32,000 nt of DNA, taken from assembly GCF_000007985.2 (NCBI RefSeq), contig NC_002939.5, forward strand, positions 1,500,001 to 1,532,000, read 5' to 3'. The notes under the pieces were generated by a model. The model had not been told where the DNA came from. It did no database searches and worked only from the letters and a program-made list of their open reading frames with translations. Position numbers and translations under genes: made by a program. Below, piece by piece: positions 12,241 through 30,540 of the stretch (positions are counted from its first letter, which is position 1; every line of letters starts with the position of its first letter). Origin of the DNA: Geobacter sulfurreducens PCA (GTDB taxonomy: Bacteria; Desulfobacterota; Desulfuromonadia; Geobacterales; Geobacteraceae).

Positions 12241-12320
12241 TTGTGACTTGATTTGTCATAATGACATGATACTAACTGAACGCGATGATGGTGGCTTGCT
12301 TGGTTGCGTTGGAGGGGGAA

Positions 12321-14972
12321 ATGGAAAGTCTTACTGTCCCGGAGTATGTTTGGTATTGGGGGAAGGCTGAGAAGGATGCAGGCGGTTACCATCTCTTGCC
12401 GTACCATTGCCTCGACGTCGCGGCTGTGGCCGCAGTCTGGTGGGATGCGAGTCCGACTATCCGGCGCAGCTTCTCCAGTCATGCGAGTTGCTCCGAGGTT
12501 CAGAGCCGCGCCTGGCTGCTCTTCTTTGTCGCATTGCACGATTATGGCAAATTCGATCTGCGCTTCCAACTGAAGGTCAGGGAGGTGTGGGAGAAGCTGC
12601 ATCCGTTGGCAGGTCAGGGGGCAAGCCTGCCTTCGCAATTTGACATCAACCAATACCAGCACGGCGAGAGCGGCCTCTTCTGGTTCAAGAAAGATTTTTT
12701 CGCCTTAAACGGATGCGAGCCCACTGCTGATTCACTTTTTATCGACGATGAACCGCTCCAGTGGTCGAACTGGAAACCGTGGGTCGAAGCGGTGACGGGT
12801 CATCATGGCCATGTGAAACAGGCGGAATATGCAAGTGATGCGTCTCTTTCTGTTTCGGTCGACGGCAGATTCGCCGAGATCGATCAAACAGCCCGGAAAG
12901 AGTGGCTAAAAGCATTGGAGCAACTTTTCCTGCGACCGGCCGGCCTTTCCCTCGATAACGCTCCGCCTCCTCCATCGCCGCTACTGGCCGGATTCTGTTC
13001 CGTGTCAGACTGGCTGGCTTCCCGTTGCGACGACACCAATTTCTCCTTCCATCAGTCACCGCTGTCAATCTCGGACTATTTCACACAAAAATTCTCACAG
13101 GACGCTCCTGCCATCCTTGCTTTCTCCGGGCTTAACGGCACAGCCAAGAGCTACGGTGGCATATCCGACCTTCTCCCTGCCATCGCAACGCCTCGTCCAC
13201 TGCAAACCAAGGTCGATCAGTTACCGCTTCAGGACGGTTTGACCATCATTGAAGCACCGACCGGATCAGGCAAGACCGAAGCTGCCCTTGCCCATGCCTG
13301 GCGGTTGCTGGCTACCGGGCAAGCCGATTCGATCATCTTCGCGCTCCCCACGCAGGCCACTGCCAACGCCATGCTGGGCCGACTTGAATCGCTGGCTGAA
13401 CGTATTTTTACCAACAGCCCGAACCTCTTACTGGCCCATGGCAATGCCCGGTTCAACCGGACCTTCACGGACCTCAAGCGCAGAGGGTATAGCGACGTCG
13501 CCGACCCGGACGGCTGGACACAATGTGGGGAATGGCTGGCGGAGAGTCGCAAGCGGGTTTTTCTCGGACAGATCGGAGTCTGCACCATCGATCAGGTCCT
13601 GATTTCCGTATTGCCGGTCAAACATCGCTTCGTGCGTGGCCTTGGGGTGGGACGAAGCGTGCTGATCGTGGATGAGGTGCATGCCTACGACGCCTACATG
13701 TACGGCCTGCTTGAAGAAGTCTTGCGTCAGCAGCGCCAGTGCGGCGGCTCGGCCATCCTGTTATCGGCCACCCTGCCCGCAACGCTGAAGCAACAACTCG
13801 CAGCGGCCTGGGGAGACCAACGCACCGAATGCAACCCATCGGCAGCCTATCCGTTGTTGACTTGGCTCGGAAATGTGGATTTCCCGCCTATTTCGTTGGC
13901 TCGCCATGAAACGCCAAAACCGGTCACGGTTGAAATTGAAGCCCTGCGGCTTGAGGGAATGGAACCAGACCAGACCTTGCTCGCTCGCCTTGTCAGGGCT
14001 GCAGAGAGTGGCGCGCAGGTTGCGGTGATCTGCAATATGGTCAACGATGCCCAGAGAATCGCCGCTGCCCTGAGAGAGATGACATCCGCTCCGGTCGGCC
14101 TCTTTCATGCGCGTTACCGCTTCAAGGATCGGCAAATCAGAGAAAGCGAGGTCATCGACTGTTTCGGTCCCAGCGGCAAACGCGAACAGGGACGCATTCT
14201 GGTTGCCACTCAAGTTGTCGAGCAATCTCTCGATCTGGATTTCGATTGGCTGGTCACCCAGTTGTGCCCGGTCGACCTCCTCTTTCAGCGCATGGGGAGA
14301 CTGCATCGTCATCCACGCGCATCGCGACCTGCTGGGTATGACAAGCCAGTCTGCACTATCCTTCTCCCGTGCGAATGCAATTACGGCTACACCGGGAAAA
14401 TCTATGCGGATACCCGAGTGCTTTGGCGCACCGAACAGTTGTTGGCTTCCGCATCCGCCGGTCAGGTTACGTTCCCGGCTGCCTATCGGGAATGGATCGA
14501 GAGTGCCTATCAAGAGAAGTCTTGGGGTACAGAGCCAGATTTGGTGATTGCAGGGTTCGAGAAGTTCAAGGACAAAACCTGGAGTAAGACTTATAGCGCC
14601 AAGGAGATGATTCGGAAGGCATTTGAAATCACCCCCTTTTCGGATTCAGATGAAAATGTCACCGCCGTTACCCGTGACGATGAAATGGGGCTGACGGTGA
14701 TCCCGGTCATCGATTCGCCAAAGGGGCGGCGCTTCCTCGATGGTGGATTGCTTGGTGATCTGGATGAATTCCGCAGGGCAGAGGAGTTGGCTCTCAACAG
14801 TATCAATGTCCCTGCGCGCTGGAGTGGTTGGCTGAAAGCGTTGTGCGAAATTGACGACGAAAGACGATACTGGCTCACCATGACGGAACAAGGAGAGGGG
14901 TGCTATGTGCGTGAAGGGGAAAAGGTTGCTTTCAGGTATCACTGCGATACCGGACTGGAGAGGGTGAAATGA
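12321..14972 (+). CDS. cas3: Cas3 (HD nuclease plus SF2 helicase), type I-E
   Basis: The ORF frame starts at 12285. The ATG at 12321 follows a GGAGGGGG RBS. HD-domain motifs are LPYHCLDVAAV, ALHDYGKFD and GHHG. Helicase motif I is APTGSGKTEAA and motif II is DEVHAYD. The stop overlaps the cse1 start (ATGA). Confidence 0.95.
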   Translation: MESLTVPEYVWYWGKAEKDAGGYHLLPYHCLDVAAVAAVWWDASPTIRRSFSSHASCSEVQSRAWLLFFVALHDYGKFDLRFQLKVREVWEKLHPLAGQGASLPSQFDINQYQHGESGLFWFKKDFFALNGCEPTADSLFIDDEPLQWSNWKPWVEAVTGHHGHVKQAEYASDASLSVSVDGRFAEIDQTARKEWLKALEQLFLRPAGLSLDNAPPPPSPLLAGFCSVSDWLASRCDDTNFSFHQSPLSISDYFTQKFSQDAPAILAFSGLNGTAKSYGGISDLLPAIATPRPLQTKVDQLPLQDGLTIIEAPTGSGKTEAALAHAWRLLATGQADSIIFALPTQATANAMLGRLESLAERIFTNSPNLLLAHGNARFNRTFTDLKRRGYSDVADPDGWTQCGEWLAESRKRVFLGQIGVCTIDQVLISVLPVKHRFVRGLGVGRSVLIVDEVHAYDAYMYGLLEEVLRQQRQCGGSAILLSATLPATLKQQLAAAWGDQRTECNPSAAYPLLTWLGNVDFPPISLARHETPKPVTVEIEALRLEGMEPDQTLLARLVRAAESGAQVAVICNMVNDAQRIAAALREMTSAPVGLFHARYRFKDRQIRESEVIDCFGPSGKREQGRILVATQVVEQSLDLDFDWLVTQLCPVDLLFQRMGRLHRHPRASRPAGYDKPVCTILLPCECNYGYTGKIYADTRVLWRTEQLLASASAGQVTFPAAYREWIESAYQEKSWGTEPDLVIAGFEKFKDKTWSKTYSAKEMIRKAFEITPFSDSDENVTAVTRDDEMGLTVIPVIDSPKGRRFLDGGLLGDLDEFRRAEELALNSINVPARWSGWLKALCEIDDERRYWLTMTEQGEGCYVREGEKVAFRYHCDTGLERVK

Positions 14973-16489
14973 ATCTGCTGACCGAAGCATGGATACCTGT
15001 GCGGCCATTACCGGCCGGTGCGGCGTGCAAACTCACGTTGCGGCAACTGTTGTGCGAGGACGGCCGATGGGAGCTGTGCCTACCGCGCGACGACATGGAA
15101 CTGGCAGCCCTGCAATTGCTGATCTGCATGACGCAGGTTTTCTTTCCGCCGCAGAGCACTGCCGCGTTGAAACAGCGGATAGTTGCTCCGTTGTCGTTGG
15201 ATGAGTTTGAGAGCGGTTGTGCGCCCTATCGCGAGTGGTTCCGGCTCGACCATCCCGACTTTCCGTTCATGCAGGTGCGCAACGTCAGCGCCAAGGACCC
15301 GACTCCCATGGATAAGTTGCTGGCGGGACTGACGGGGGCGACAAACAGTTGCTTTGTGAACGAACCGGGGTTGGGCGCCTGCTTGTGCGGTGGCTGCGCG
15401 GCCATCGCCCTGTTCAACCAGTCATCCAATGCGCCGAGTTTTGGCGGCGGGTTCAAGGGGAGTCTGCGCGGTGGAGCGCCGGTGACAACTCTGGTGCAAG
15501 GTGAACATTTGAGGCAAACCGTCTGGCTCAATGTCTTGAGTGAAGAGCGTCTGACACAAATTATCCCGTGGCATCACGCAACACGCAGTCAGCAACCGAC
15601 CTGGGTTGCACCAATCAAGGCGGGCGAGACAATTCCATCACAAGCAATCGGCGTACTGCGCGGGCTCTTCTGGCAGCCGGGACATCTTGAACTGATGCCG
15701 CCGCAGGGAGAACAAGCTTGTATCTGTTGCGGTTTTGTCGAGAAACAGGTTTATGCGGGATTCAACAAGGCAAAGTTTAACTACACCATCGACGGACTCT
15801 GGCCCCACCCCCACGGCCCCCGTATCAGTTCGGTGAAGAAGGGAGAGCGGGAAGAAAAATTTGTTTCCTTCACCACCGCAGCCCCGGCTTGGACCCATTT
15901 GAGCCGGTTTGTCGTGCAGCGGCAAACGACCAACAGTAAAGAGGAAGGTCAGGAGCCGGCCGCGGTGGTGCGGCAGGCGCAGGGACTACTCAATAAGTTA
16001 CGCCTGGCAGTCGGTGGCTACCGCAACAATCAGGCATCGATTCTTGAGCGGCGCCACGAACTGATTTTTCTCAATGACGGCTGGAGCGGGCATACAGAGG
16101 TGGTGCATGCGCTGGTCGGACAGGCGGTCGGGTATCGCGATGCACTGAATAAGGCGCTTTTTGTATTTTCCACGGGCTTCAAAGAGATCAAGGGAGCCGG
16201 CGTTAAGGTTCATGAATTGGCTAAGGAGCAATTCTACCGCCGTAGTGAAGATACGGTTCTCGATACCTTGGCACGCATCGACTTTGAACAAGCAGCCCTG
16301 GCATTGCTGGCAATGGGGGATGGGCTCCACGGTATTGTCGTTGGGCTTTTTAATGAGTCGGTCGCACCCTACCGCAACGATCCGGAATTAATCCGTACCA
16401 CAGCCGTGGCGCGTAAGACACTGTACAAGCATTTAAATGCACTCAAACCACAACGGGATGGAAGGAGGGACGATGGAACGAACGCATGA
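14969..16489 (+). CDS. cas8e: Cas8e / Cse1 (CasA), Cascade large subunit
   Basis: 506-aa ORF. The N-terminus MNLLTEAWIPVR is typical of Cse1. Its position between cas3 and cse2 fits, and there is a 4-nt overlap with cas3. Confidence 0.9.
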   Translation: MNLLTEAWIPVRPLPAGAACKLTLRQLLCEDGRWELCLPRDDMELAALQLLICMTQVFFPPQSTAALKQRIVAPLSLDEFESGCAPYREWFRLDHPDFPFMQVRNVSAKDPTPMDKLLAGLTGATNSCFVNEPGLGACLCGGCAAIALFNQSSNAPSFGGGFKGSLRGGAPVTTLVQGEHLRQTVWLNVLSEERLTQIIPWHHATRSQQPTWVAPIKAGETIPSQAIGVLRGLFWQPGHLELMPPQGEQACICCGFVEKQVYAGFNKAKFNYTIDGLWPHPHGPRISSVKKGEREEKFVSFTTAAPAWTHLSRFVVQRQTTNSKEEGQEPAAVVRQAQGLLNKLRLAVGGYRNNQASILERRHELIFLNDGWSGHTEVVHALVGQAVGYRDALNKALFVFSTGFKEIKGAGVKVHELAKEQFYRRSEDTVLDTLARIDFEQAALALLAMGDGLHGIVVGLFNESVAPYRNDPELIRTTAVARKTLYKHLNALKPQRDGRRDDGTNA

Positions 16490-16916
16490 TTTCATGGGCC
16501 TCTATCAGGCATGGGAGCGGCTGGCTCCGGGCCCGAGAGCCGAGTTGCGCCGAGTCGAACGCCCGGACGATCTACTGGAAGTGCCGGCTTTTTATCGGCT
16601 CTTCAGCGGTCGGGGAACCACGGAGTGGGAAAAGGGAGCCTACCAGAGACTGATCTTCTGCCTGCCGTGCATCAAACACAGCGGCGAGAATATCAGCCTG
16701 GGCAGAGCGTTGGCCAAGGGGAGGGGCGTTGGCGAAAAACGTCTTTTTCAGGTTGTGCGCAGCAGCGAGCCCAACGACATGATCCAGTTACGCCGGATTC
16801 TGCGTATGGCCGAACCGACCGTGAACTGGGATCTGGCGGCGCGACAACTCTGGTACTGGAATGACCGGAGCAAGCGCGACCTGCTCGAAGATTACTTCCT
16901 CAATCACTCGAACTGA
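16473..16916 (+). CDS. cse2: Cas11 / Cse2 (CasB), Cascade small subunit
   Basis: The ATG at 16473 follows a GGAAGGAGGG RBS (the ORF track gives an earlier ATG at 16437). The product is ~147 aa, Arg-rich and helical. It sits in the canonical position between cse1 and cas7e. Confidence 0.85.
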   Translation: MERTHDFMGLYQAWERLAPGPRAELRRVERPDDLLEVPAFYRLFSGRGTTEWEKGAYQRLIFCLPCIKHSGENISLGRALAKGRGVGEKRLFQVVRSSEPNDMIQLRRILRMAEPTVNWDLAARQLWYWNDRSKRDLLEDYFLNHSN

Positions 16917-16943: not shown

Positions 16944-18038
16944 ATGAAGAACTTCATCAACTTTCACATCCTGATTTCCCACAGTCCCTCCTGCCTTAAC
17001 CGCGACGATATGAACATGCAGAAATCTGCTGTTTTCGGTGGTGAGCGGCGGGTGCGCGTTTCCAGTCAAAGCCTCAAACGGGCCATCCGAAAGAGTGATT
17101 ACTATCGTCAGCACCTTGGCGAAGCGAGTGTGCGCACCAAGAAGTTGGACGAACTGATCGCGATCATAAATGATCGTCTGGCCGGACGCTACGATACCGA
17201 CCTCCTGAAGAAGACTGTTGGGCTGCTGGCCGGCAAGGAGTTAAGTGTCGAGGTTGCGACAGAAGGTGATGCCGTGGCGCCGTGGGCAATCGAAGAGGTG
17301 GCATGGTTCTGTGAGCAGGTCAAGAGGATGGTGGCGCAAGGACAGGACGAAAAAGCTCTGGGCAAATTGTTGAAGAATGAAACGGCTGCCATGCGGCAGG
17401 CTCTGGCATCCGGTGTTGATATTGCACTTTCCGGCCGCATGGCGACGTCAGGTCTCATGAGTGAACTCGGCAAGGTCGATGGTGCCTTGGCCGTTGCCCA
17501 TGTCTTGACCACCCACAGCGTTGATGCGGATATCGACTGGTTCACTGCCGTGGATGACTTGCAGGAACTGGGCTCCGGTCATCTCGATACGCAGGAATTT
17601 TCCAGCGGGGTCTTTTATCGTTATGCCAGCCTCAACGTGAAGCAGTTGCAGGAAAACCTGGGCAATGCCCCGCGCGAGAAGGCACTGGAGATCGGCGCTC
17701 ATCTGCTTCACATGCTGGCAACGATTGTCCCTTCAGCCAAACAGCAGAGCTTCGCAGCTCACAACCTGGCCGACCTTGCCCTGGTTTCCTTTTCCGATAT
17801 CCCGGTATCGCTCGCAAATGCATTCGAAAAACCTGTCCGTAGCGTCAATGGCAGCGGCTTCAAAGAGCCTTCCATTGCTGAACTGCATAACTACTGGCAG
17901 CAGATCCATACAGGTTACGGCCTTTCCGAGCGGTGCGGCGAGTTCATCCTCGGTCAGAGTAGCGTCCCTGAAGGGATCACCCGGAAGAGTACTATTGAAG
18001 AACTCAAAACCTGGGTGATGAACAACGGAGAGGGGTAA
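16944..18038 (+). CDS. cas7: Cas7e (Cse4 / CasC), Cascade backbone subunit
   Basis: The N-terminus MKNFINFHILISHSPSCLNRDDMNMQKSAVFGGERRVRVSSQSLKRAIR is nearly identical to what I recall for E. coli CasC. Confidence 0.97.
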   Translation: MKNFINFHILISHSPSCLNRDDMNMQKSAVFGGERRVRVSSQSLKRAIRKSDYYRQHLGEASVRTKKLDELIAIINDRLAGRYDTDLLKKTVGLLAGKELSVEVATEGDAVAPWAIEEVAWFCEQVKRMVAQGQDEKALGKLLKNETAAMRQALASGVDIALSGRMATSGLMSELGKVDGALAVAHVLTTHSVDADIDWFTAVDDLQELGSGHLDTQEFSSGVFYRYASLNVKQLQENLGNAPREKALEIGAHLLHMLATIVPSAKQQSFAAHNLADLALVSFSDIPVSLANAFEKPVRSVNGSGFKEPSIAELHNYWQQIHTGYGLSERCGEFILGQSSVPEGITRKSTIEELKTWVMNNGEG

Positions 18039-18040
18039 CC

Positions 18041-18721
18041 ATGCGTGATTATCTGATCCTCAAGCTGCAAGGACCCATGCAGTCATGGGGGGAGCATACT
18101 TTCGAGGGAAAGCGACCGTCCGGCAATTTCCCCACACGTAGCGCCCTCCTCGGCCTGCTCGGGGCCTGCCTGGGCATCAGGCGAAACGAGGCCGGTCGCC
18201 TGCAACAACTGGCAGACAGCGTTGCCTTTGCCGTTCGTAAGGAAGAACGCTTCCGAATTAGGCACGACGGCCGGAAAACTTCCCTGCCGATCATCAAGGC
18301 AACCGATTACCACACGGTGAGGGATGCGCGGGAGGATTATTTCGGCCTGAAAAGCCATGAGACCATTCAGACTTGGCGTGAATACCTGTTCGATGCTACC
18401 TACACCGTGGCCGTCTGGAATACCGACGTTGCGACGATATCGCTGGTTGAACTGGAACAGGCCGTAAAGTCGCCCCACTTCACCCCCTATCTTGGTCGGC
18501 GCAGTTGTCCATTGTCCCGTCCGCTGTTCGAGATGAGCTTTTCTGCAGCGAATGCCTGTGACGCTTTGCGCATGATTCCTTCGGATGGTGGGGTGATCTA
18601 CAGTGAGGAGCCGGGCGAAACACGAACCATACGGCTTCGTGACGTGCCATTGGTGCGCCAGCCACGCCAGTTTGCCAGCCGCAACGTCCATGTCTATGGA
18701 GGGGTCGATGTATCTGAGTAA
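18041..18721 (+). CDS. cas5: Cas5e (CasD)
   Basis: MRDYLILKLQGPMQSWGEHTFEGKRPSGNFPTRSALLGLLGACLGI closely parallels E. coli CasD. Confidence 0.95.
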   Translation: MRDYLILKLQGPMQSWGEHTFEGKRPSGNFPTRSALLGLLGACLGIRRNEAGRLQQLADSVAFAVRKEERFRIRHDGRKTSLPIIKATDYHTVRDAREDYFGLKSHETIQTWREYLFDATYTVAVWNTDVATISLVELEQAVKSPHFTPYLGRRSCPLSRPLFEMSFSAANACDALRMIPSDGGVIYSEEPGETRTIRLRDVPLVRQPRQFASRNVHVYGGVDVSE

Positions 18722-19316
18722 AGTCTTGATCAACGGGACAGCCTGTCGCAATCCCTACGAGATTCATCGAGTGTTGTGGAAGCTCTTTCCCGAAGATGCC
18801 GATGCCGAGCGTGATTTTCTCTTTCGTGTTGAGCGATCCGGTCAACAGAGCGTGGAGGTGTTGTTGCAGTCCCGACGTGAACCTACTATGGCTGCATCTC
18901 GTGAAGTACTCTTGATGGGAAGCAAACCCTACCTTCTCAGCCTCCAGCAGGATCAGCAGCTGCGCTTTATGCTAGTCGCCAACCCGATAAAGACGATCAA
19001 CGACGAAAGCGCGAGACTAAATAGTGCCAATGAAATAAAGAAGTGCCGCGTTCCGCTGATTCGTGAGGAGGATCTGCGTGCATGGCTGAAACGGAAACTT
19101 GAGGGCGTGGCCGTCATTGAGGCGGTCGAGGTAGAAAAGCGGCCGGCTATGAACTTTCGTAAGGCCAGGGAAAAGCGGGTCGGTAAGGTACAGGCGGTTA
19201 GTTTTCATGGTGTGTTGTCAGTGACGGACCCCGTCGGGTTGATATCCCTGATCAATACCGGCATCGGCCCTGCCAAGGCCTTTGGCTGCGGTTTGCTATC
19301 GCTGGCTAGGACATAA
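18708..19316 (+). CDS. cas6e: Cas6e (Cse3 / CasE) crRNA endoribonuclease
   Basis: The ATG at 18708 gives MYLSKVLINGTACRNPYEIHRVLWKLFPEDADAERDFLFRVE, matching the E. coli CasE N-terminus (MYLSKV...FP...RDFLF.VE). The C-terminal GIGPAKAFGCGLLSL motif is present. It overlaps cas5e by 14 nt. Confidence 0.95.
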   Translation: MYLSKVLINGTACRNPYEIHRVLWKLFPEDADAERDFLFRVERSGQQSVEVLLQSRREPTMAASREVLLMGSKPYLLSLQQDQQLRFMLVANPIKTINDESARLNSANEIKKCRVPLIREEDLRAWLKRKLEGVAVIEAVEVEKRPAMNFRKAREKRVGKVQAVSFHGVLSVTDPVGLISLINTGIGPAKAFGCGLLSLART

Positions 19317-19328
19317 ATTCTCCCCCCG

Positions 19329-19349
19329 CCCCCCTTTCATAAAGGGGGG
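19329..19349 (+). terminator. Hairpin 13 nt after the cas6e stop (9-bp stem, 3-nt loop)
   Basis: CCCCCCTTT-CAT-AAAGGGGGG. Only a weak T-rich tract follows (GAGCCTTTTC), so this may be an attenuator or processing site rather than a full terminator. Confidence 0.4.
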
Positions 19350-19379
19350 AAAGGAGCCTTTTCGGCAGGTGTGATAATA

Positions 19380-19486
19380 GGCAACAGGACTATCGGTACA
19401 AATTAACCTTAATATTAATAATACTGTTGAATAAATTAACAAATATATTAATATTTGTAGTAATAAAATTAATTTAGAGGTTAATT
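19380..19486 (+). promoter_or_regulatory. AT-rich island (about 20% GC by eye, in a high-GC window) with nested inverted repeats; candidate promoter/operator of the HTH-Fic cassette
   Basis: AATTAACCT (19401-19409) is the exact inverse complement of AGGTTAATT (19478-19486, which abuts the ATG). An extra AATTAAC lies at 19434-19440. Palindromes are TTAATATTAA (19409-19418) and TATTAATA (19446-19453). A possible -35 TTGAAT (19427-19432) and -10 TAATAT (19449-19454) are 16 nt apart. Confidence 0.5.
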
Positions 19487-19957
19487 ATGCTGCCAAGCCG
19501 AAAACGTCTCGTTCTTGAACAACTGGGGAAAACTCTCTCACGTTTCGCCGGACTACAAGCAGTATCTCCCCCGGCAAGGGGGTGGATACGAGCCATCCGG
19601 GAAGCGTTGGGGATGTCTGGCGTACAGTTTGCCGCCCGTTTGGGGGTGACGCCGCCACGGGTGACGGCGCTGGAACGGGATGAACTGTCCGGGGCCGTTA
19701 CCATGAAGACCATGCGCCAGGCTGCGGAGGCTCTGGATTGCGTGTTTCTCTATGCTCTGGTGCCGCGCACGAGCCTTGAGGAAACCATTAGGAGGCAGGC
19801 GGAGGCCGTGGCGCGTGAGCGCCTGTTGCGGGTGTCCCACACCATGATGCTGGAAAGCCAGCAGCTCTCGGAAGAGGAGATGAAACAGGCGCTGGATGCT
19901 GCGGTGGAGGAACTGGTGCGGACTATGCCGAAAGATTTGTGGAGCAAAGCCCCATGA
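19487..19957 (+). CDS. XRE-type helix-turn-helix protein (antitoxin/regulator-like partner of the Fic protein)
   Basis: 156-aa ORF. The HTH region is GWIRAIREALGMSGVQFAARLGVTPPRVTALERDE, followed by a helical acidic C-terminal half. The stop overlaps the start of the next gene (ATGA at 19954-19957). The architecture matches what I recall as the TIGRFAMs 'mobile mystery protein A' family; this is unverified here. Confidence 0.8.
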   Translation: MLPSRKRLVLEQLGKTLSRFAGLQAVSPPARGWIRAIREALGMSGVQFAARLGVTPPRVTALERDELSGAVTMKTMRQAAEALDCVFLYALVPRTSLEETIRRQAEAVARERLLRVSHTMMLESQQLSEEEMKQALDAAVEELVRTMPKDLWSKAP

Positions 19958-20538
19958 ACTTCGAGTACCCCGACGGGGCAACTCCTCTTGATTCAGATGA
20001 GGCTGAAGGGCTTCTCCTGACGCATATTACCTCACGCGGCGAGCTGGATCGCTGGGAGCAGGAAAATATCGCGGAAGGGGAGGCCTGGGCTTTCGGACGC
20101 AGGCAGAAGAATATCCTGAGCGAAGCCTTTATTCGTCGTCTGCATAAGCGGATGTTCGGCCATGTATGGCGTTGGGCCGGAGAGTTCCGCAGAAGCGACA
20201 AGAATATCGGCGTCACGTGGTGGCAGGTGCCGATTGAACTACGCAAACTGTGCGACGATGTTGTCGCCTGGATAGCGTTCGGCACCTACCCGCCCGACGA
20301 GATTGCCGTGCGGTTCCATCACCGGCTGGTGGCCATACATCCGTTTGCCAACGGCAACGGCCGGCATGCCCGGACCATGACCGACCTGTTGCTCGTCCAG
20401 GCTCTGCAGCGTCCTCGATTTACCTGGGGAAGCGGCAATCTCGTCAGTGTCGGCGACTGCCGGCGCTACTATATCGAAGCGCTTCGCGCCGCCGACCGGC
20501 ATGATTATCAACTTCTGCTGGAATTTGTGCGGATGTGA
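19954..20538 (+). CDS. Fic-domain protein (AMPylase/toxin-like)
   Basis: I prefer the ATG at 19954 (ATGA overlap); the ORF track gives GTG at 19939. A canonical Fic motif HPFANGNGRHAR (HxFx(D/E)GNGRxxR) lies at nt 20338-20373. An (S/T)xxxE(G/N)-like SDEAEG lies at nt 19993-20010. It resembles what I recall as 'mobile mystery protein B'; this is unverified. Confidence 0.88.
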   Translation: MNFEYPDGATPLDSDEAEGLLLTHITSRGELDRWEQENIAEGEAWAFGRRQKNILSEAFIRRLHKRMFGHVWRWAGEFRRSDKNIGVTWWQVPIELRKLCDDVVAWIAFGTYPPDEIAVRFHHRLVAIHPFANGNGRHARTMTDLLLVQALQRPRFTWGSGNLVSVGDCRRYYIEALRAADRHDYQLLLEFVRM

Positions 20539-20565
20539 TCCTGATTTGCCAAGGAGGTGTCAGCA

Positions 20566-21772
<1,207 letters not shown>

Positions 21773-21846
21773 CGAAACCTGTGAGAAAAGTTGGTAGGTT
21801 TGAGTTGTTTGGAAATTGCATGTGAATTCAATGATGTAGAGGAAGT
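21773..21846 (+). promoter_or_regulatory. CRISPR leader (74 bp between the cas2 stop and the first repeat)
   Basis: The segment is relatively AT-rich (…GTTGTTTGGAAATTGCATGTGAATTCAATGATGTAGAGGAAGT) and directly abuts repeat 1. Repeat orientation matches the E. coli I-E repeat (…CCCCGC…GCGGGGAT.AACCG), so transcription runs on the + strand. Confidence 0.7.
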
Positions 21847-24800
21847 GTGTTCCCCGCATGCGCGGGGATGAACCGATCGCCCTGGAGACCACCGCCCGTG
21901 ACGGCGAGTGTTCCCCGCATGCGCGGGGATGAACCGAGCCGGCGTTCAAACGCGACACTGGCGGCCGAGTGTTCCCCGCATGCGCGGGGATGAACCGGCC
22001 TGTTCCCCCTCGTCGGCCAGGTTGTTGTGGTGTTCCCCGCATGCGCGGGGATGAACCGTCGTCGAAGACATGGACCAGGCCGACGCCGTAGTGTTCCCCG
22101 CATGCGCGGGGATGAACCGTGCTCTCCGGGCTCTCCGGTCTGGTGAATTTCGTGTTCCCCGCATGCGCGGGGATGAACCGGTTTCCGGTCGCAGCATGGA
22201 GCCGATGATCGTGTGTTCCCCGCATGCGCGGGGATGAACCGCTCACCCAATGACCTGGTACTGCCCGGTATATGTGTTCCCCGCATGCGCGGGGATGAAC
22301 CGCTTCTGTCGCTCACGCTCAATGCGGTCCGTACGTGTTCCCCGCATGCGCGGGGATGAACCGCAACGGATCGACTACTGGGACTGCACTGTTTAGTGTT
22401 CCCCGCATGCGCGGGGATGAACCGATTACGCGCATGCCAGCTCCAACCATGCTCGAGTGTTCCCCGCATGCGCGGGGATGAACCGGGGGTAAAGGGGGGC
22501 ATGATGCCCCCCTCTGCTGTGTTCCCCGCATGCGCGGGGATGAACCGGCCGTTACCGGTAACCCCGGTCGTTATGATGGGTGTTCCCCGCATGCGCGGGG
22601 ATGAACCGACAGTAGCAACGATAGCGAGAGAAAGGAAAATGTGTTCCCCGCATGCGCGGGGATGAACCGGTGCTCTCGGTTCCGGTAAGACATACTATGC
22701 TGTGTTCCCCGCATGCGCGGGGATGAACCGATATTTTTGGTAATCAGCAGGGTTTTTAGTCGGTGTTCCCCGCATGCGCGGGGATGAACCGACGATACAG
22801 CAGACGATACAGGAGCAAGGACAGTGTTCCCCGCATGCGCGGGGATGAACCGTACCAGGAATGTGTTTAGAACGCTCGAGAGCCGTGTTCCCCGCATGCG
22901 CGGGGATGAACCGTTCAATGGGTTGATTTGATGGATTCCAAGCTTGTGTTCCCCGCATGCGCGGGGATGAACCGTGCCGGGGGGGTGGCGCCGGCGGTGG
23001 TGTCTTGTGTTCCCCGCATGCGCGGGGATGAACCGGTACCGGGCCGCTCCTCCATGACCAACGCCAAGTGTTCCCCGCATGCGCGGGGATGAACCGGTCG
23101 GCAGCCGGCCCTGGGTGCTCTCCTCGGGGTGTTCCCCGCATGCGCGGGGATGAACCGTAGACCTCTGCAGCGCCTTTGCCACTGCAGCAGTGTTCCCCGC
23201 ATGCGCGGGGATGAACCGTCGGCAGCGGTAAATCCGTCATGCGCCGCAAAGTGTTCCCCGCATGCGCGGGGATGAACCGCCCCTTGTCGCTGCCGGACTT
23301 TTTCTTCAGGTGTGTTCCCCGCATGCGCGGGGATGAACCGTCAGCCGGGCCGCCGACCCCAGCGCCCGGGAGGTGTTCCCCGCATGCGCGGGGATGAACC
23401 GGCCCGGTCTGGCGGGCCGACCAGATCATCACCGTGTTCCCCGCATGCGCGGGGATGAACCGAACCAGTCGGTGGCGTCGGTCTGGAAGGGGTTGTGTTC
23501 CCCGCATGCGCGGGGATGAACCGTTCAACCCATATATGGGACTATGCGGCTAGGCGTGTTCCCCGCATGCGCGGGGATGAACCGGAGGCGTAAGCATGGC
23601 AACAGAGACTCAGAACGTGTTCCCCGCATGCGCGGGGATGAACCGAGCTAGGCGACATCTCGTCTTTTGTCCGTGCCGTGTTCCCCGCATGCGCGGGGAT
23701 GAACCGCACGACTCACCGCCTGGCTGGCGGCCGACGAGGTGTTCCCCGCATGCGCGGGGATGAACCGTATTCCCAGGTTAGCGGTTGCAGCCACAGCATG
23801 TGTTCCCCGCATGCGCGGGGATGAACCGCCATCAGCAACGCCGCAGACCGCGCCGGCATCGTGTTCCCCGCATGCGCGGGGATGAACCGGCTGGTTCATG
23901 GGGCGTTCACCTCCGCAGGCCGTGTTCCCCGCATGCGCGGGGATGAACCGAGGGCCGGGCCATGATCCAGGCCGACCTCGACGTGTTCCCCGCATGCGCG
24001 GGGATGAACCGGTTTTTCTGGAGGAGGTGCCCCCCTGGCATGCGTGTTCCCCGCATGCGCGGGGATGAACCGGCTGTGTCTGCTGTGATAATCTTGAGAG
24101 TGATGTGTTCCCCGCATGCGCGGGGATGAACCGGGCGAGGTTAGGCGGAGGCTGGAGAGCATCGCGTGTTCCCCGCATGCGCGGGGATGAACCGACGAGC
24201 CACTGAAACTCAGCCCCTGGCCCAGAGTGTTCCCCGCATGCGCGGGGATGAACCGGACCACGGCTACCTCAAGAGCGTGTTGAAATCGTGTTCCCCGCAT
24301 GCGCGGGGATGAACCGCTGCCCGCCTGGGGCTTGATCTCCAGCAGGCCGTGTTCCCCGCATGCGCGGGGATGAACCGCTGCGGGAACAGCAGGCCGAACG
24401 CCTGGGCCAGTGTTCCCCGCATGCGCGGGGATGAACCGACCCCGGCAACCTGACGTGCGGCGTTTGGGTCGTGTTCCCCGCATGCGCGGGGATGAACCGC
24501 TCGCCAGGGGGCAATCTTTGCTCCTGCCACGGTGTTCCCCGCATGCGCGGGGATGAACCGATGCAGATCCTCGTCGCCTACGATACCGCCGTGTGTTCCC
24601 CGCATGCGCGGGGATGAACCGCTCGCGGTCGGAGCTGCCGGTGAGGCGGCGCCGTGTTCCCCGCATGCGCGGGGATGAACCGTGCTCTGGCCCGACACGC
24701 CTCCTGAGCAGCGCGTGTTCCCCGCATGCGCGGGGATGAACCGCCCTCCCCATCCCTGGTCGTAACCCGAAGATTGTGTTCCCCGCATGCGCGGGGATGA

Positions 24801-27800
24801 ACCGCCCAGCGGATCGTCAACGACGAGCGGCACCTCGTGTTCCCCGCATGCGCGGGGATGAACCGGTGCGCGAGGGTATTTGCGGTCAAGGGCATCGGTG
24901 TTCCCCGCATGCGCGGGGATGAACCGACCACCGCCCCCATCACCTGGACCGGCGTCAAGTGTTCCCCGCATGCGCGGGGATGAACCGAAATTAACCACAC
25001 CGGACCGCTGTTTCTCAACGTGTTCCCCGCATGCGCGGGGATGAACCGATCCTGTCGAGGCCCTGCAACTCCTGGGAGAGGTGTTCCCCGCATGCGCGGG
25101 GATGAACCGGCGAATGCCGTTCGCCCGACCTACGGTCGGACGTGTTCCCCGCATGCGCGGGGATGAACCGGGGTCTGGTCCGGTGGATGTCTATCTGTGC
25201 AGGTGTTCCCCGCATGCGCGGGGATGAACCGATGCATTCGGGGAAAGCCCTTATCGTGACATTGTGTTCCCCGCATGCGCGGGGATGAACCGCAGATGAA
25301 AGGAACCTGAAAATGGCACTCAGAGTGTTCCCCGCATGCGCGGGGATGAACCGCGACACAGGATCGCGTCGCCAGTCTTGATCTCGTGTTCCCCGCATGC
25401 GCGGGGATGAACCGGGGTATAACCCGCCTATAGACGCCGACTACGCGTGTTCCCCGCATGCGCGGGGATGAACCGATACACAAGAATGGCCGGATCGAGA
25501 TGCCGAAGTGTTCCCCGCATGCGCGGGGATGAACCGTCAATATTTTAGTTTTGCTGGTCAGGCGTTTCGTGTTCCCCGCATGCGCGGGGATGAACCGCTC
25601 GTCAGCGCCATGCTCAAAGAGGCGGCCGGGTGTTCCCCGCATGCGCGGGGATGAACCGCTGGATATCACCGAGGGGGGCGCCGTTGTCCTGTGTTCCCCG
25701 CATGCGCGGGGATGAACCGTGTCCACCCCGTAATTTCCGAGACTTTTTTAGGTGTTCCCCGCATGCGCGGGGATGAACCGAATGCACCGTCCGCAATTAC
25801 CGCTTTAGCTATGTGTTCCCCGCATGCGCGGGGATGAACCGCCTTTGTAATAGTCGAAGCCGAACTCGACGCCGTGTTCCCCGCATGCGCGGGGATGAAC
25901 CGGGTGATGTACGCCCCACCATCAATTGAGACCTGTGTTCCCCGCATGCGCGGGGATGAACCAGCCGAGCACGACGAAGAGAAACTCCGCAAGTGGTGTT
26001 CCCCGCATGCGCGGGGATGAACCGATATGGGGAACTAAGTGGAACGCCTGTGAGTCGTGTTCCCCGCATGCGCGGGGATGAACCGCGGTATCAAATGAGG
26101 CCTTCCCCTCGTCAGGGGTGTTCCCCGCATGCGCGGGGATGAACCGTATAATGAAGAAGGGAGAATTGAACAATGGGTGTGTTCCCCGCATGCGCGGGGA
26201 TGAACCGAATCGCTTTGAGGTTCGTTGCTGGAACGAGGAGTGTTCCCCGCATGCGCGGGGATGAACCGATGAGGGCTGAAAACCCGGCAATCGAACCCTG
26301 GTGTTCCCCGCATGCGCGGGGATGAACCGGTCATTTCTGTTCTCCAGCCGCTATCGCCAGCGTGTTCCCCGCATGCGCGGGGATGAACCGGCGGCCTGGA
26401 GGCGGTCGACTCCTTCACGGCCGTGTTCCCCGCATGCGCGGGGATGAACCGATGTGCGGCCCCTTCTCCTTCGGTGACTACTCGTGTTCCCCGCATGCGC
26501 GGGGATGAACCGTTTATCGTTGCGAACCGACAGAGGGTGAAATAGTGTTCCCCGCATGCGCGGGGATGAACCGGTGAGTATGCAGCAATGAACATTTCTC
26601 TCCTTGTGTTCCCCGCATGCGCGGGGATGAACCCAGATGTGTGCTGAATTCAAGAACCCGCAAGGCGTGTTCCCCGCATGCGCGGGGATGAACCGGACAA
26701 AATCAGCGACATTACCACCGTTGGCGAGTGTTCCCCGCATGCGCGGGGATGAACCGGTATTCCCTATGGCCGGAAACACCATCATCGTGTGTTCCCCGCA
26801 TGCGCGGGGATGAACCGATCGAGGATCTGCTCGTCGGTGATGGTGCCATGTGTTCCCCGCATGCGCGGGGATGAACCGTAACCATGCCCGGATCACTATC
26901 GAGTACACCGGTGTTCCCCGCATGCGCGGGGATGAACCGCGCACGAATGTCCTCGGCCCTCCATGCCGTACGTGTTCCCCGCATGCGCGGGGATGAACCG
27001 CCGTTACGCCGACCGCCGAGTTTCGGCAAAATGTGTTCCCCGCATGCGCGGGGATGAACCGCACGGAAAAGAGCCCGACTCCGTGAACCAGGCGTGTTCC
27101 CCGCATGCGCGGGGATGAACCGCAGGATGGCGTCGAAAAATACTATCGCCGGTCGTGTTCCCCGCATGCGCGGGGATGAACCGGAGTACGACTGGGTACT
27201 CATCGACGAGGCGCAGTGTTCCCCGCATGCGCGGGGATGAACCGAGCGGGTAGATGTCCTCCCGGTACTGGGATGCGTGTTCCCCGCATGCGCGGGGATG
27301 AACCGGTGCCAAACAAGCCGTCAGTGCTTTTGGCGGGCGTGTTCCCCGCATGCGCGGGGATGAACCGCTTGAGCGACCGCTTCAGAATCGGGATGAGCCG
27401 TGTTCCCCGCATGCGCGGGGATGAACCGGCGTTGCCATCTGGGTCCTGATGCTCGACCGCGTGTTCCCCGCATGCGCGGGGATGAACCGGTTTGCCGATA
27501 CGTGCCGTCCCTGCGCCGACAGTGTTCCCCGCATGCGCGGGGATGAACCGTACCCTCACTAAAGGGCAACAGCACGATTCAAGTGTTCCCCGCATGCGCG
27601 GGGATGAACCGCGCTGGCTCACCCTGGCGCAGGGTCTCCGACAGTGTTCCCCGCATGCGCGGGGATGAACCGATGAGGGATGCTTCCGAAGGTAAGATTG
27701 AGGCGTGTTCCCCGCATGCGCGGGGATGAACCGAGGTTGGGTGTGGCTTCCTACGATTTTGAGCAGTGTTCCCCGCATGCGCGGGGATGAACCGACTGTA

Positions 27801-30540
27801 ACGTCTGCCATTGGCTCAGGAGGTTTGTGTTCCCCGCATGCGCGGGGATGAACCGATACCAAAACAAAAGACATTATGTCCGACATCGTGTTCCCCGCAT
27901 GCGCGGGGATGAACCGATCAACTACACCTACACCGTGGCCGCCAGCGGGTGTTCCCCGCATGCGCGGGGATGAACCGCTATCCGGTTCATTTTTTCATTG
28001 GTGAGATAGGTGTTCCCCGCATGCGCGGGGATGAACCGGCTGCGAGGCTGCACAGACGAATCCTGGAAGGGTGTTCCCCGCATGCGCGGGGATGAACCGG
28101 GGATCACCTGATGGACGCAACCCGCTACCTAGTGTTCCCCGCATGCGCGGGGATGAACCGAGTGGCCCCACCGGCAGTATAGCCGGTTCCGCGTGTTCCC
28201 CGCATGCGCGGGGATGAACCGGTGCTGGGACTCTTCGCGCAGGGCGCCCATATGTGTTCCCCGCATGCGCGGGGATGAACCGGAGCTTCGGCGGGTTTTG
28301 CGGATGCTGGTTTAGTGTTCCCCGCATGCGCGGGGATGAACCGAAATTGCGACTATCCTCACCAAGTTGGCAAAGGTGTTCCCCGCATGCGCGGGGATGA
28401 ACCGACGCTACTTTTTATCGCTGGGATCATTGCAATGTGTTCCCCGCATGCGCGGGGATGAACCGGTTGTCCAGAGGGTCAGCCATTTGGAGCTTGGGTG
28501 TTCCCCGCATGCGCGGGGATGAACCGGAGTTGCAGCCCCTCACCGGACGGAGTCGCTAGTGTTCCCCGCATGCGCGGGGATGAACCGGCTTCTTTGAAGC
28601 TGGGGACAATATCCCTGCTGTGTTCCCCGCATGCGCGGGGATGAACCGACCTCAAACAGAGCATCAACGCGGCCCACTCCGTGTTCCCCGCATGCGCGGG
28701 GATGAACCGCCGGAGCCTGGGAGATCGGCAAGAACTACCTGGTGTTCCCCGCATGCGCGGGGATGAACCGGGTAAACCCGTCCCCACAGTCACGATGGTG
28801 GTGTGTTCCCCGCATGCGCGGGGATGAACCGGCGACAACTATGCTGGGGTCGTGTACTTGCCAGTGTTCCCCGCATGCGCGGGGATGAACCGGTGTACTT
28901 ACTTCCGTGTTGGTTCTCTCTGCGGTGTTCCCCGCATGCGCGGGGATGAACCGCCGGTCTTGAGGGTCCAGCTTTCCTGCTCGAAGTGTTCCCCGCATGC
29001 GCGGGGATGAACCGCAGTCGATACTCACCGATATCTCGTCAATAACGTGTTCCCCGCATGCGCGGGGATGAACCGGGAAACAGCACGATTCAACTGGTGT
29101 GTAACACGTGTTCCCCGCATGCGCGGGGATGAACCGAAGAAGGCCGGCTGCCATACATTCCGCCATAGGTGTTCCCCGCATGCGCGGGGATGAACCGCTA
29201 CGCAATGGCTCACTAATGTGGTCCATACGGTGTTCCCCGCATGCGCGGGGATGAACCGATGTTCAAAGCGTTGCGCCAGTGGTTAACGTCGTGTTCCCCG
29301 CATGCGCGGGGATGAACCGCGGATGCCGAAGGGGGCAATTTGCTTACGGGTGTGTTCCCCGCATGCGCGGGGATGAACCGCCAAAACCGCCAAGGACAAC
29401 TACGAGGCGCAGGTGTTCCCCGCATGCGCGGGGATGAACCGGTGGATATCAAGCGCCTGACCCTGGAAACTGCGTGTTCCCCGCATGCGCGGGGATGAAC
29501 CGCTGCGCAAACAGTTTGAGGGTCAGGTGGTGGAGTGTTCCCCGCATGCGCGGGGATGAACCGTTGACGGAAGCGTTTCGGTATCGGAAGGCATTGTGTT
29601 CCCCGCATGCGCGGGGATGAACCGGTGATTCCAGTGGCCCCAGCGGCAGTGCTGCCGTGTTCCCCGCACATGCGGGGATGAACCGGGTTTCTACGGCCAG
29701 TACCGGGGCGAAAAGAAGTGTTCCCCGCACATGCGGGGATGAACCGTTGTCACGCTTCGCGGCGCAGAACCGGAAACAGTGTTCCCCGCACATGCGGGGA
29801 TGAACCGGAGCCAGAACCATGAATATATTAGACGGGGCAGTGTTCCCCGCACATGCGGGGATGAACCGGTGGGCTCCATGCTGCGACCGCGCACTAGAAC
29901 GTGTTCCCCGCACATGCGGGGATGAACCGCCTTTACATCGGTTTTCATGGCCTTGATAAAGGTGTTCCCCGCACATGCGGGGATGAACCGCACGTGCACT
30001 CGGTTGAGGATGTCGCCATAAGGTGTTCCCCGCACATGCGGGGATGAACCGACGCCTATGACCACGCGGCGAAGATCATCGGTGTGTTCCCCGCACATGC
30101 GGGGATGAACCGCGGTAGACCTACTGGTGGACTCCGGGCTCTCCCGTGTTCCCCGCACATGCGGGGATGAACCGCCGCTCCAGTTCGGCAACGTGGACCA
30201 GATCCGGTGTTCCCCGCACATGCGGGGATGAACCGGTAGAATGGCTTTTCGGCGACGCGCTCCGAGAGTGTTCCCCGCACATGCGGGGATGAACCGTGGA
30301 CGAGCGCAGTCAGGAGAAGTTGCTCGTCGTGTTCCCCGCACATGCGGGGATGAACCGCTCCAACGAATTGCCGCCATCGAGCGCCATCAGTGTTCCCCGC
30401 ACATGCGGGGATGAACCGACAATTCCGCCGGTGCGGTAGATGTGTTGGTAGTGTTCCCCGCACATGCGGGGATGAACCGTCCAGCATTGCCTTGCCGTGT
30501 CCGGATTTGCGGTGTTCCCCGCCTGCGCGGGGATGAACCG
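21847..30540 (+). CRISPR. Type I-E CRISPR array: 143 repeats of 29 bp and 142 spacers
   Basis: I located every repeat start by hand. The period is 61 bp throughout, except for three 62-bp units with 33-nt spacers at 22486-22518, 27306-27338 and 30113-30145. The consensus is GTGTTCCCCGCATGCGCGGGGATGAACCG (128 copies, 21847-29624). Single-base 3'-end variants occur at 25935-25963 (…AACCA) and 26606-26634 (…AACCC). Fourteen copies of GTGTTCCCCGCACATGCGGGGATGAACCG lie at 29657-30479. The terminal repeat is GTGTTCCCCGCCTGCGCGGGGATGAACCG (30512-30540). Confidence 0.99.

Follow-up and report, generated by a model that had tools for sequence, protein, structure and literature searches.

Which promoter transcribes cas1 and cas2 when another gene pair separates them from the rest of a type I-E CRISPR-Cas operon? 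This question is raised by a locus of Geobacter sulfurreducens PCA, which lies in a stretch of 32,000 nucleotides (nt) of contig NC_002939.5 (positions 1,500,001 to 1,532,000; hereafter the window, to which coordinates refer unless another locus is named). In this locus, cas6e is followed by a cassette of two genes, mobA and mobB, which encode a helix-turn-helix (HTH) protein and a Fic-domain protein, respectively, and only then by the adaptation genes cas1 and cas2. The original prediction, made from the window alone, held that cas1-cas2 are probably rewired to an HTH-autoregulated promoter of the toxin-antitoxin (TA) style at the head of the cassette, rather than, or in addition to, the promoter of the Cascade operon. 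The features on which it was built (a hairpin after cas6e, an AT-rich island with repeats, palindromes and promoter hexamers, and close gene packing) are all present at the positions given. The comparison with related loci reported here points to an autoregulated HTH-Fic cassette that is inserted at the cas6e/cas1 junction and whose promoter co-feeds cas1-cas2, a reading that is considered probable but far from certain.

In the proposed arrangement, a 1.16-kb cassette (19400-20560) would have inserted into the formerly tight cas6e/cas1 junction of the type I-E operon. The 5' end of the cassette would supply its own sigma-70-type promoter (TTGAAT-16-TAATAT), interleaved with three palindromes spaced 33 bp apart: O1 upstream of the -35 hexamer, O2 over the -10 hexamer, and O3 over the 5' untranslated region and the Shine-Dalgarno sequence. 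The HTH protein, probably in complex with the Fic protein, would bind O1-O3 and repress its own transcription. Since no terminator intervenes and cas1 begins 27 nt past the Fic gene, transcripts from the cassette promoter would run on through cas1-cas2, and the adaptation genes would thus receive two inputs, namely read-through from the Cascade operon and the autoregulated promoter of the cassette.

Three operator-like sites in the AT-rich island

The island upstream of mobA (19380-19486) is 107 bp long with a GC content of 20.6%, which falls to 14% in its core (19396-19486). The exact 9-bp inverted repeat highlighted by the original prediction is found here (AATTAACCT at 19401-19409 and AGGTTAATT at 19478-19486), and its right arm touches the mobA ATG at 19487. 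However, this repeat is not significant in itself, as inverted repeats of at least 9 bp occur in 269 of 2000 dinucleotide shuffles (approximately 13%), which makes it unremarkable in such AT-rich DNA. What is significant is that three 20-bp units, which begin at 19400, 19433 and 19466 (O1-O3 in Table 1), recur with a period of 33 bp; the lag-33 match is 0.62, a value that 1 of 2000 shuffles reaches. All three units are imperfect palindromes of the form ATTAAY-N6-RTTAAT, and the long-range 9-bp inverted repeat arises because the third unit is inverted. The arms of the repeat are the outer half-sites of O1 and O3, and the repeat was rejected as the key operator. A third copy of AATTAAC is located at 19434-19440, and AT palindromes are located at 19409-19418 (TTAATATTAA) and 19439-19458 (ACAAATAT/ATATTTGT). 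The latter palindrome, of 20 bp, was dropped as a candidate site because conservation is missing both in a further G. sulfurreducens strain (L001) and in Geobacter benzoatilyticus (L003).

The putative promoter hexamers are situated among these sites (Table 1). A TTG at the -35 place relative to O2 is visible by eye (uncounted) in most cassettes whose MobA proteins are 57-92% identical, despite their different operators. Additionally, the islands of G. sulfurreducens and G. benzoatilyticus share 87% identity, the flanking genes of the two species showing a synonymous divergence (dS) of 0.22-0.50, and the ten substitutions in the island are mostly outside the TTAA cores of the half-sites.

Covariation of the operators with the recognition helix

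Homologous cassettes were assembled from 80 species genomes, the contigs of the closest proteins and one metagenomic type I-E locus (L168), and the 130 nt preceding mobA were compared in 81 distinct loci. In almost all of these upstream regions, pairs of half-sites occupy positions of about -86/-76, -53/-43 and -20/-10 relative to the ATG or are displaced by approximately 15 nt. The period of approximately 33 bp is constant across the regions, whereas the motif itself differs by clade, and sorting the loci by the recognition helix of the HTH also sorts the class of operator. The helix TPPRVT is associated with TTAAC/TTAAT, SQPRIP with ATAAT..GTTAT, AQQAVAR with TACAACATATATGTTGTA, TKQRxS with TGTCAATATATATTGACA, NKQRVSR with GTCTATA..TATAGAC, TTSTVTR with TTGCAC..GTGCAA, and IDQSRISR with ATGCTAT..ATAGCAT.

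This covariation provides strong comparative evidence for binding of the predicted sites by MobA. Because the operator sites covary with the recognition helix, the island is interpreted as an autoregulatory operator array, and an autoregulated promoter of the cassette is well supported at the level of sequence comparison. Where the cassette occurs in a type I-C array or in type I-G loci, the island is present as well. Together with the three-site layout, which recurs with its 33-bp spacing in approximately 80 loci, these observations favor the HTH-autoregulated, TA-style promoter that was originally proposed. The model predicts a transcription start in the island, an HTH protein that acts as a repressor and transcripts that the cassette shares with cas1-cas2; any physiological coupling is likewise a prediction.

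Insertion of the cassette into a tight junction

In Escherichia coli K-12, the type I-E genes casABCDE-cas1-cas2 are expressed from Pcas under the control of H-NS and LeuO. The window agrees with this operon in subtype and gene order, except that an insert of 1.25 kb with its own putative promoter splits cas6e from cas1. In ten of the related metagenomic type I-E loci used for comparison (L097-L176; Cas1e 81-90% identical), cas6e and cas1 overlap or are at most 32 nt apart, and the whole segment 19317-20565 is therefore an insert. In the ancestral state, as in these tight-junction relatives, cas1-cas2 would be distal in the Cascade operon.

The homology with cassettes in unrelated contexts starts at O1 and stops approximately 22 nt past the Fic stop codon; the mobile unit thus spans approximately 19400-20560 (1.16 kb), with the cas1 Shine-Dalgarno sequence within its tail. 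This 22-nt tail reads TCCTGATTTGCCAAGGAGGTGT in the window and TCCTTAATTGCCAAGTAAGTGT in L007 and L010, where the tail stands in a context without cas1. The cassette was already inserted when G. sulfurreducens and G. benzoatilyticus diverged. Between these species, dS is 0.22 for cse1, 0.21 for cas7, 0.15 for cas5 and 0.24 for cas6e, and it amounts to 0.29 for mobA, 0.39 for mobB, 0.50 for cas1 and 1.24 for cas2; this tendency to rise along the locus suggests recombination or quicker turnover toward the array end. The ratio of nonsynonymous to synonymous divergence in the same comparison is 0.15 for mobA and 0.08 for mobB, and both genes are under purifying selection, like the cas genes.

Probable connection of the cassette with cas1-cas2

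The Fic stop codon (20536-20538) and the cas1 ATG at 20566 are separated by 27 nt, and cas1, which ends at 21486, shares 20 nt with cas2, which starts at 21467. All 27 nt of the Fic-cas1 junction are identical in G. benzoatilyticus (27/27), with a dS of 0.39-0.50 in the flanking genes. The terminator scan calls no terminator-like site on the + strand past 15907 and hence none in 19300-21800, in agreement with the original prediction that HTH-Fic-cas1-cas2 contains no terminator. Because no terminator follows the Fic gene and the ribosome-binding site of cas1 is in the cassette tail, cas1-cas2 are likely co-transcribed from the predicted cassette promoter. It is more likely that this promoter acts in addition to the Cascade promoter than instead of it, and a dual input is the most economical reading for the expression of cas1-cas2.

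A stem is also predicted at approximately 20552-20583, in which the Shine-Dalgarno sequence of cas1 (AGGAGGU) pairs with cas1 codons 4-6 (GCUUCCU). The stem is present in both the minimum-free-energy and the centroid folds, yet the fold is no better than those of shuffles. Translational control of cas1 by this predicted stem is possible.

Alternative explanations

The explanation closest to co-feeding, from which it differs in degree rather than kind, is that the cassette is a passive hitchhiker, i.e., a selfish addiction or defence-island module in a permissive junction, while cas1-cas2 run on Cascade read-through and the cassette promoter is without regulatory meaning. Selection for continued cas1-cas2 expression would then account for the shared orientation, the tight junction and the lack of a terminator. 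This explanation is a serious possibility, although it is not the preferred one. The cas6e/cas1 junction is a general insertion hotspot. The gap exceeds 240 nt in 34 of the 46 related type I-E loci with a measurable junction, and three of these 34 wide junctions (L100, L123 and L147) are gene-order variants with cas7-cas5 homologues between cas6e and cas1. Among the identifiable inserts, approximately 30 junctions contain co-oriented genes for Fic (three kinds), RhuM, Bro-N, ORF6N, 23S_rRNA_IVP or YhcG/DUF1016, and these accessory genes often end 0-36 nt from the cas1 start. Type I restriction-modification operons harbour PrrC, Fic, RhuM, ORF6N and DUF1016 as accessory genes; the genes at the cas6e/cas1 junction are of the same families, whereas the host system is CRISPR-Cas and not hsdRMS. 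In P. carbinolicus, two unnumbered genes are present between casE (Pcar_0961) and cas1 (Pcar_0964) (PMC2923632).

The positions of the related cassettes are also variable. The closest relatives of MobB form one clade (neighbour-joining tree, without support values), and most of its members are in CRISPR loci, in which their positions differ. The cassette is in a small I-C-type array downstream of cas2 in L007 and L010 and after GSU0054-cas3 in the type I-G locus L011; in L092 it has the effector genes of a type I-G system on one side and, at a distance, cas4/cas1-cas2 on the other. It precedes cas1 in none of these loci, and L168 is a second case of the cassette directly upstream of cas1e. For the 80 more distant cassettes (55-73% identity), no adjoining cas genes or arrays are found with cas queries for types I-E, I-C-like and I-G, which other types could escape, and mobB homologues are found on 283 plasmids. 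Given the hotspot and the varied positions of the cassette, the layout may therefore merely be tolerated at this junction. Moreover, a weak terminator candidate is present in only 11 of 88 loci of the family. The absence of a terminator is thus general and is not a derived feature of rewiring, and the missing terminator as a derived trait of cas-embedded cassettes was rejected. The TTGAAT/TAATAT pair matches the consensus at 8 of 12 positions and is under the threshold of the consensus promoter scan, which missed it, so that the promoter assignment rests on conservation. Tight steady-state repression could furthermore make the share of the cassette promoter negligible compared with read-through.

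On the other side, a conserved promoter located directly upstream without a terminator would add cas1-cas2 transcription whenever it fires. The Shine-Dalgarno sequence of cas1 arose in the cassette tail (AAGGAGG here and AAGTAAG in L007), and no position of the junction has changed (100% conservation). Co-feeding is preferred to passive hitchhiking. Of the rewiring that was originally proposed, the position of cas1-cas2 directly downstream, the lack of a terminator and the Shine-Dalgarno sequence in cassette DNA stand, whereas a specific adaptation of the layout is put in doubt by the terminator-free state of the whole family, the relatives placed elsewhere and the hotspot.

Another possibility is full insulation, in which the hairpin after cas6e or a roadblock of repressor on the three operators halts Cascade transcription and leaves cas1-cas2 solely on the TA promoter. 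The stem of the hairpin is stable (9 bp, with 6 of the 9 pairs being G-C) and is conserved in G. benzoatilyticus, and three phased operators do span the transcription path. Only 1 of 100 shuffles yields a match similar to the hairpin. As an intrinsic terminator, the element has the G+C-rich stem-loop but not the 3' U-tract: the sequence directly after the stem is AAAGGAGCC / AAAGGAGCCTTTTCGG. The terminator scan passes over the hairpin, which folds no better than shuffled sequences do (z-score 0.01) and which lies, together with the next 50 nt, outside the cassette. In G. benzoatilyticus (L003, 4840-5400), three similar hairpins of the type CCCCCC-TTT-NNN-AAA-GGGGGG, of which the window has one copy, flank an extra co-oriented DUF559 gene (Vsr-like endonuclease) that sits between cas6e and the HTH-Fic cassette. 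The hairpin therefore behaves as a repeated junction element and not as an operon boundary. It was rejected as a terminator or cassette boundary for these reasons, and the part of the original prediction in which the cassette promoter acts rather than the Cascade promoter is not supported. Exclusive control of cas1-cas2 by the cassette promoter is unlikely, and full insulation in particular is given little weight.

Finally, the idea that the island is just DNA of low complexity gained by horizontal transfer, or a stretch to which a nucleoid silencer binds, with repeats that reflect chance and composition, draws on the insignificance of the 9-bp inverted repeat alone and on the strain-specific 20-bp palindrome, but it is highly improbable in view of a 33-bp periodicity reached in just one of 2000 shuffles and of three site positions that are kept family-wide and covary with the recognition helix.

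The HTH and Fic proteins

The two proteins of the cassette are the mobile mystery protein A/B pair, and both score far above the curated cutoffs: MobA reaches 227.1 bits against TIGR02612 (cutoff 122.6), and MobB reaches 328.7 bits against TIGR02613 (cutoff 124.4). The mobA gene is directly upstream of mobB on the same strand with a 4-nt overlap (19954-19957), and the same order is found in the 80 genome loci and in the cas-linked relatives that were searched. MobA contains 156 amino acids, with the PF01381 HTH domain at residues 34-85, and an identical copy of it is encoded in G. sulfurreducens genomes, including CP002031. No solved structure is similar to MobA by sequence. A segment of MobA, SHTMxLE, is approximately 90% conserved in 78 homologues, and the residue after the glutamate is variable and is not G or N. 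The segment is reminiscent of the inhibitory (S/T)xxxE(G/N) helix of Fic modules, although the last position misfits.

The Fic active-site motif of MobB is HPFANGNGRHAR, with H129..R140 invariant in the alignment of homologues. It conforms to HxFx(D/E)GNGRxxR, with Asn at the D/E position. The nearest solved structures are adenosine monophosphate (AMP) transferases of the FICD/NmFic/VbhT type, for which the match is limited to the Fic core, and the similarity to characterised Fic toxins likewise covers the catalytic core only (E-values of 1e-4 to 1e-9). MobB also matches PDC-S04, a candidate phage-defence family of PADLOC (E=5e-21). MobB is considered a putative AMP-transferase toxin. No experimental reports on the mobile mystery A/B family were found in the literature searched.

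Comparison with known systems

The layout resembles those of autoregulated type II TA operons such as Phd/Doc and the class I Fic modules VbhT/VbhA and FicT/FicA, in which a small DNA-binding antitoxin is encoded upstream of a Fic-fold toxin with a 4-nt overlap and palindromes are present in the promoter. A conserved TxxxE motif of MobA resembles the Fic inhibitory helix. Unlike the short peptides VbhA and FicA, MobA is a 156-residue Xre-type HTH protein, the residue that follows its conserved glutamate is not G or N, and three operator-like sites with a 33-bp period precede its gene. A toxin module inside a type I cas operon, which could be addictive or a back-up defence, is also seen in CreTA/CrePA (PMC12737573). 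In these systems, however, a crRNA-like RNA (i.e., one similar to CRISPR RNA) guides Cascade to the toxin promoter, whereas both partners are proteins here and the putative repressor is the HTH protein of the cassette itself. No repeat-like sequence with 3 or fewer mismatches is present outside the array in the window, which differs from CreTA, whose crRNA-like antitoxin lies between degenerate repeats and whose toxin promoter is repressed by Cascade. A 2025 review of TA-CRISPR systems covers the RNA-guided CreTA, CreR and CrePA, and a term search for Fic gave no mention in it (PMC12737573).

The original prediction had put the regulatory layout forward as one not known to be described for type I-E. 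The gene pair itself is not new, as Zhang, Doak and Ye (2014, Nucleic Acids Research) had already described these Fic and TIGR02612 genes of the cas locus of G. sulfurreducens as a toxin/antitoxin pair (PMC3936711). The passage concerned gives the presence of the genes only and does not discuss transcriptional wiring; the operator island, the cas6e-cas1 position, co-transcription of cas1-cas2 and the I-C/I-G relatives do not appear in that passage. Beyond that report, nothing on Fic proteins in CRISPR neighbourhoods was found in the literature searched, and the same search gave no description of the operator architecture of the family, of the CRISPR-associated subclade or of a transcriptional link to cas1-cas2. 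The cassette is best described as a putative type II TA module lying within a cas operon, an arrangement of a kind that is already known, of which the wiring is a plausible variant.

On the basis of gene content, it has been suggested more than once that immunity is coupled to modules for dormancy or suicide in cas loci (PMC3936711). The present locus is a concrete case in which a predicted protein TA promoter with a defined operator array is directly upstream of cas1-cas2. If the cassette promoter contributes measurably, adaptation would be controlled differently from interference and would possibly be responsive to the stability of the antitoxin. In a more far-reaching model, the subclade is an accessory module of CRISPR systems, in which loss of the antitoxin during infection or stress derepresses the promoter and leads to Fic-mediated growth arrest together with a burst of Cas1-Cas2, i.e., dormancy-coupled acquisition. 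If so, the recurrence of the subclade in type I-E (twice), I-C and I-G loci would reflect function and not insertion bias, but this model is considered unlikely. Stress-coupled adaptation is speculative, and any link between spacer acquisition and the state of the Fic module is pure inference. In addition, the covariation of operator and recognition helix offers a ready-made specificity code for an uncharacterised and very widespread HTH-Fic family.

Cassettes in other CRISPR loci

Some of the relatives show additional features. In L007 (3334-4690) and L010 (2084-3410), the closest relative outside type I-E encodes a Fic protein with 92% identity. The array of these loci lies downstream of cas4-BroN-cas1-cas2, and with I-C repeats on both sides the cassette resembles a giant spacer. 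Its 22-nt tail is directly followed by a full type I-E repeat in the variant of G. benzoatilyticus (GTGTTCCCTGCAGACGCGGGGATGAACCG) and by 27 nt more, which suggests that the cassette moved between CRISPR loci along with array sequence. In the Nitrospirota type I-G locus L092 (8661-11186), the cassette is followed by a gene for an M78 peptidase and a HigB/HTH pair and then by cas4/cas1-cas2; a stack of several toxin-antitoxin-like modules thus separates the effector genes from the adaptation genes.

Organization of the locus and turnover of the array

The gene order of the locus is cas3-cse1-cse2-cas7-cas5-cas6e / HTH-Fic / cas1-cas2, followed by an array of 143 repeats, and the coordinates are summarized in Table 1. 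The assignment to type I-E is based on the presence of all eight cas genes and of 29-nt repeats with a period of 61 nt. The called start of cas6e agrees with those in L001 and L002, which are other strains of G. sulfurreducens. The locus tags of strain PCA are GSU1389 for cas6e and GSU1392 for cas1, and an engineered spacer construct has served to test the interference activity of the G. sulfurreducens system (PMC2923632). From the numbering of these flanking genes, mobA and mobB would be GSU1390 and GSU1391, neither of which is mentioned in the literature searched.

Table 1. Positions of genes, predicted sites and other elements of the type I-E locus in the window.
Feature	Position	Strand	Remarks
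cas3	12285-14972		type I-E locus (Pfam and NCBIfam scans)
cse1	14969-16489		type I-E locus (Pfam and NCBIfam scans)
cse2	end at 16916		type I-E locus (Pfam and NCBIfam scans)
cas7	16944-18038		type I-E locus (Pfam and NCBIfam scans)
cas5	18041-18721		type I-E locus (Pfam and NCBIfam scans)
cas6e (casE/cse3), final gene of the interference module	18708-19316	+	TIGR01907 (E=5.5e-50); PF08798
GC-rich hairpin, 9-bp stem and 3-nt loop, CCCCCCTTT-CAT-AAAGGGGGG	19329-19349	+	
Operator-like site O1, AAATTAAC-CTTA-ATATTAAT	19400-19419	+	periodic unit; position and half-sites conserved in homologous cassettes
Putative -35 hexamer, TTGAAT	19427-19432	+	same in L003, L007 and L010
Operator-like site O2, AAATTAAC-AAAT-ATATTAAT	19433-19452	+	overlaps the -10 hexamer
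Putative -10 hexamer, TAATAT	19449-19454	+	16 nt past the -35; same hexamer and spacing in L007, TAATAA in L003
Operator-like site O3, AAATTAAT-TTAG-AGGTTAAT	19466-19485	+	inverted; overlaps the mobA Shine-Dalgarno AGAGG (19476-19480)
mobA, Xre-type HTH, putative antitoxin/repressor, 'mobile mystery protein A'	19487-19957	+	TIGR02612
mobB, Fic-domain putative toxin, 'mobile mystery protein B'	19954-20538	+	TIGR02613, PF02661
Fic-cas1 junction	20539-20565	+	first 22 nt are the cassette 3' tail; holds the cas1 Shine-Dalgarno AAGGAGG (20551-20557)
cas1e	20566-21486	+	TIGR03638 (E=1.3e-116)
cas2e	21467-21772	+	PF09707 (E=3.3e-37)
Type I-E CRISPR array, 143 repeats	21847-30540	+	

A comparison of the 142 spacers of the window with 66 leader-proximal spacers of the two other G. 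sulfurreducens strains reveals no exact sharing, and the Cas proteins of these strains are 94-100% identical to those of the window. G. benzoatilyticus shares no spacers with the window either. The compared arrays comprise 143, at least 67 and at least 77 repeats. The lack of shared spacers between strains and species indicates that cas1-cas2 function in this layout, and it implies that the turnover of the array is very fast or that the array has been replaced. Within the array of the window, 14 repeats at 29657-30479, before the terminal repeat, carry the loop variant GCACATGC in place of GCATGCGC.

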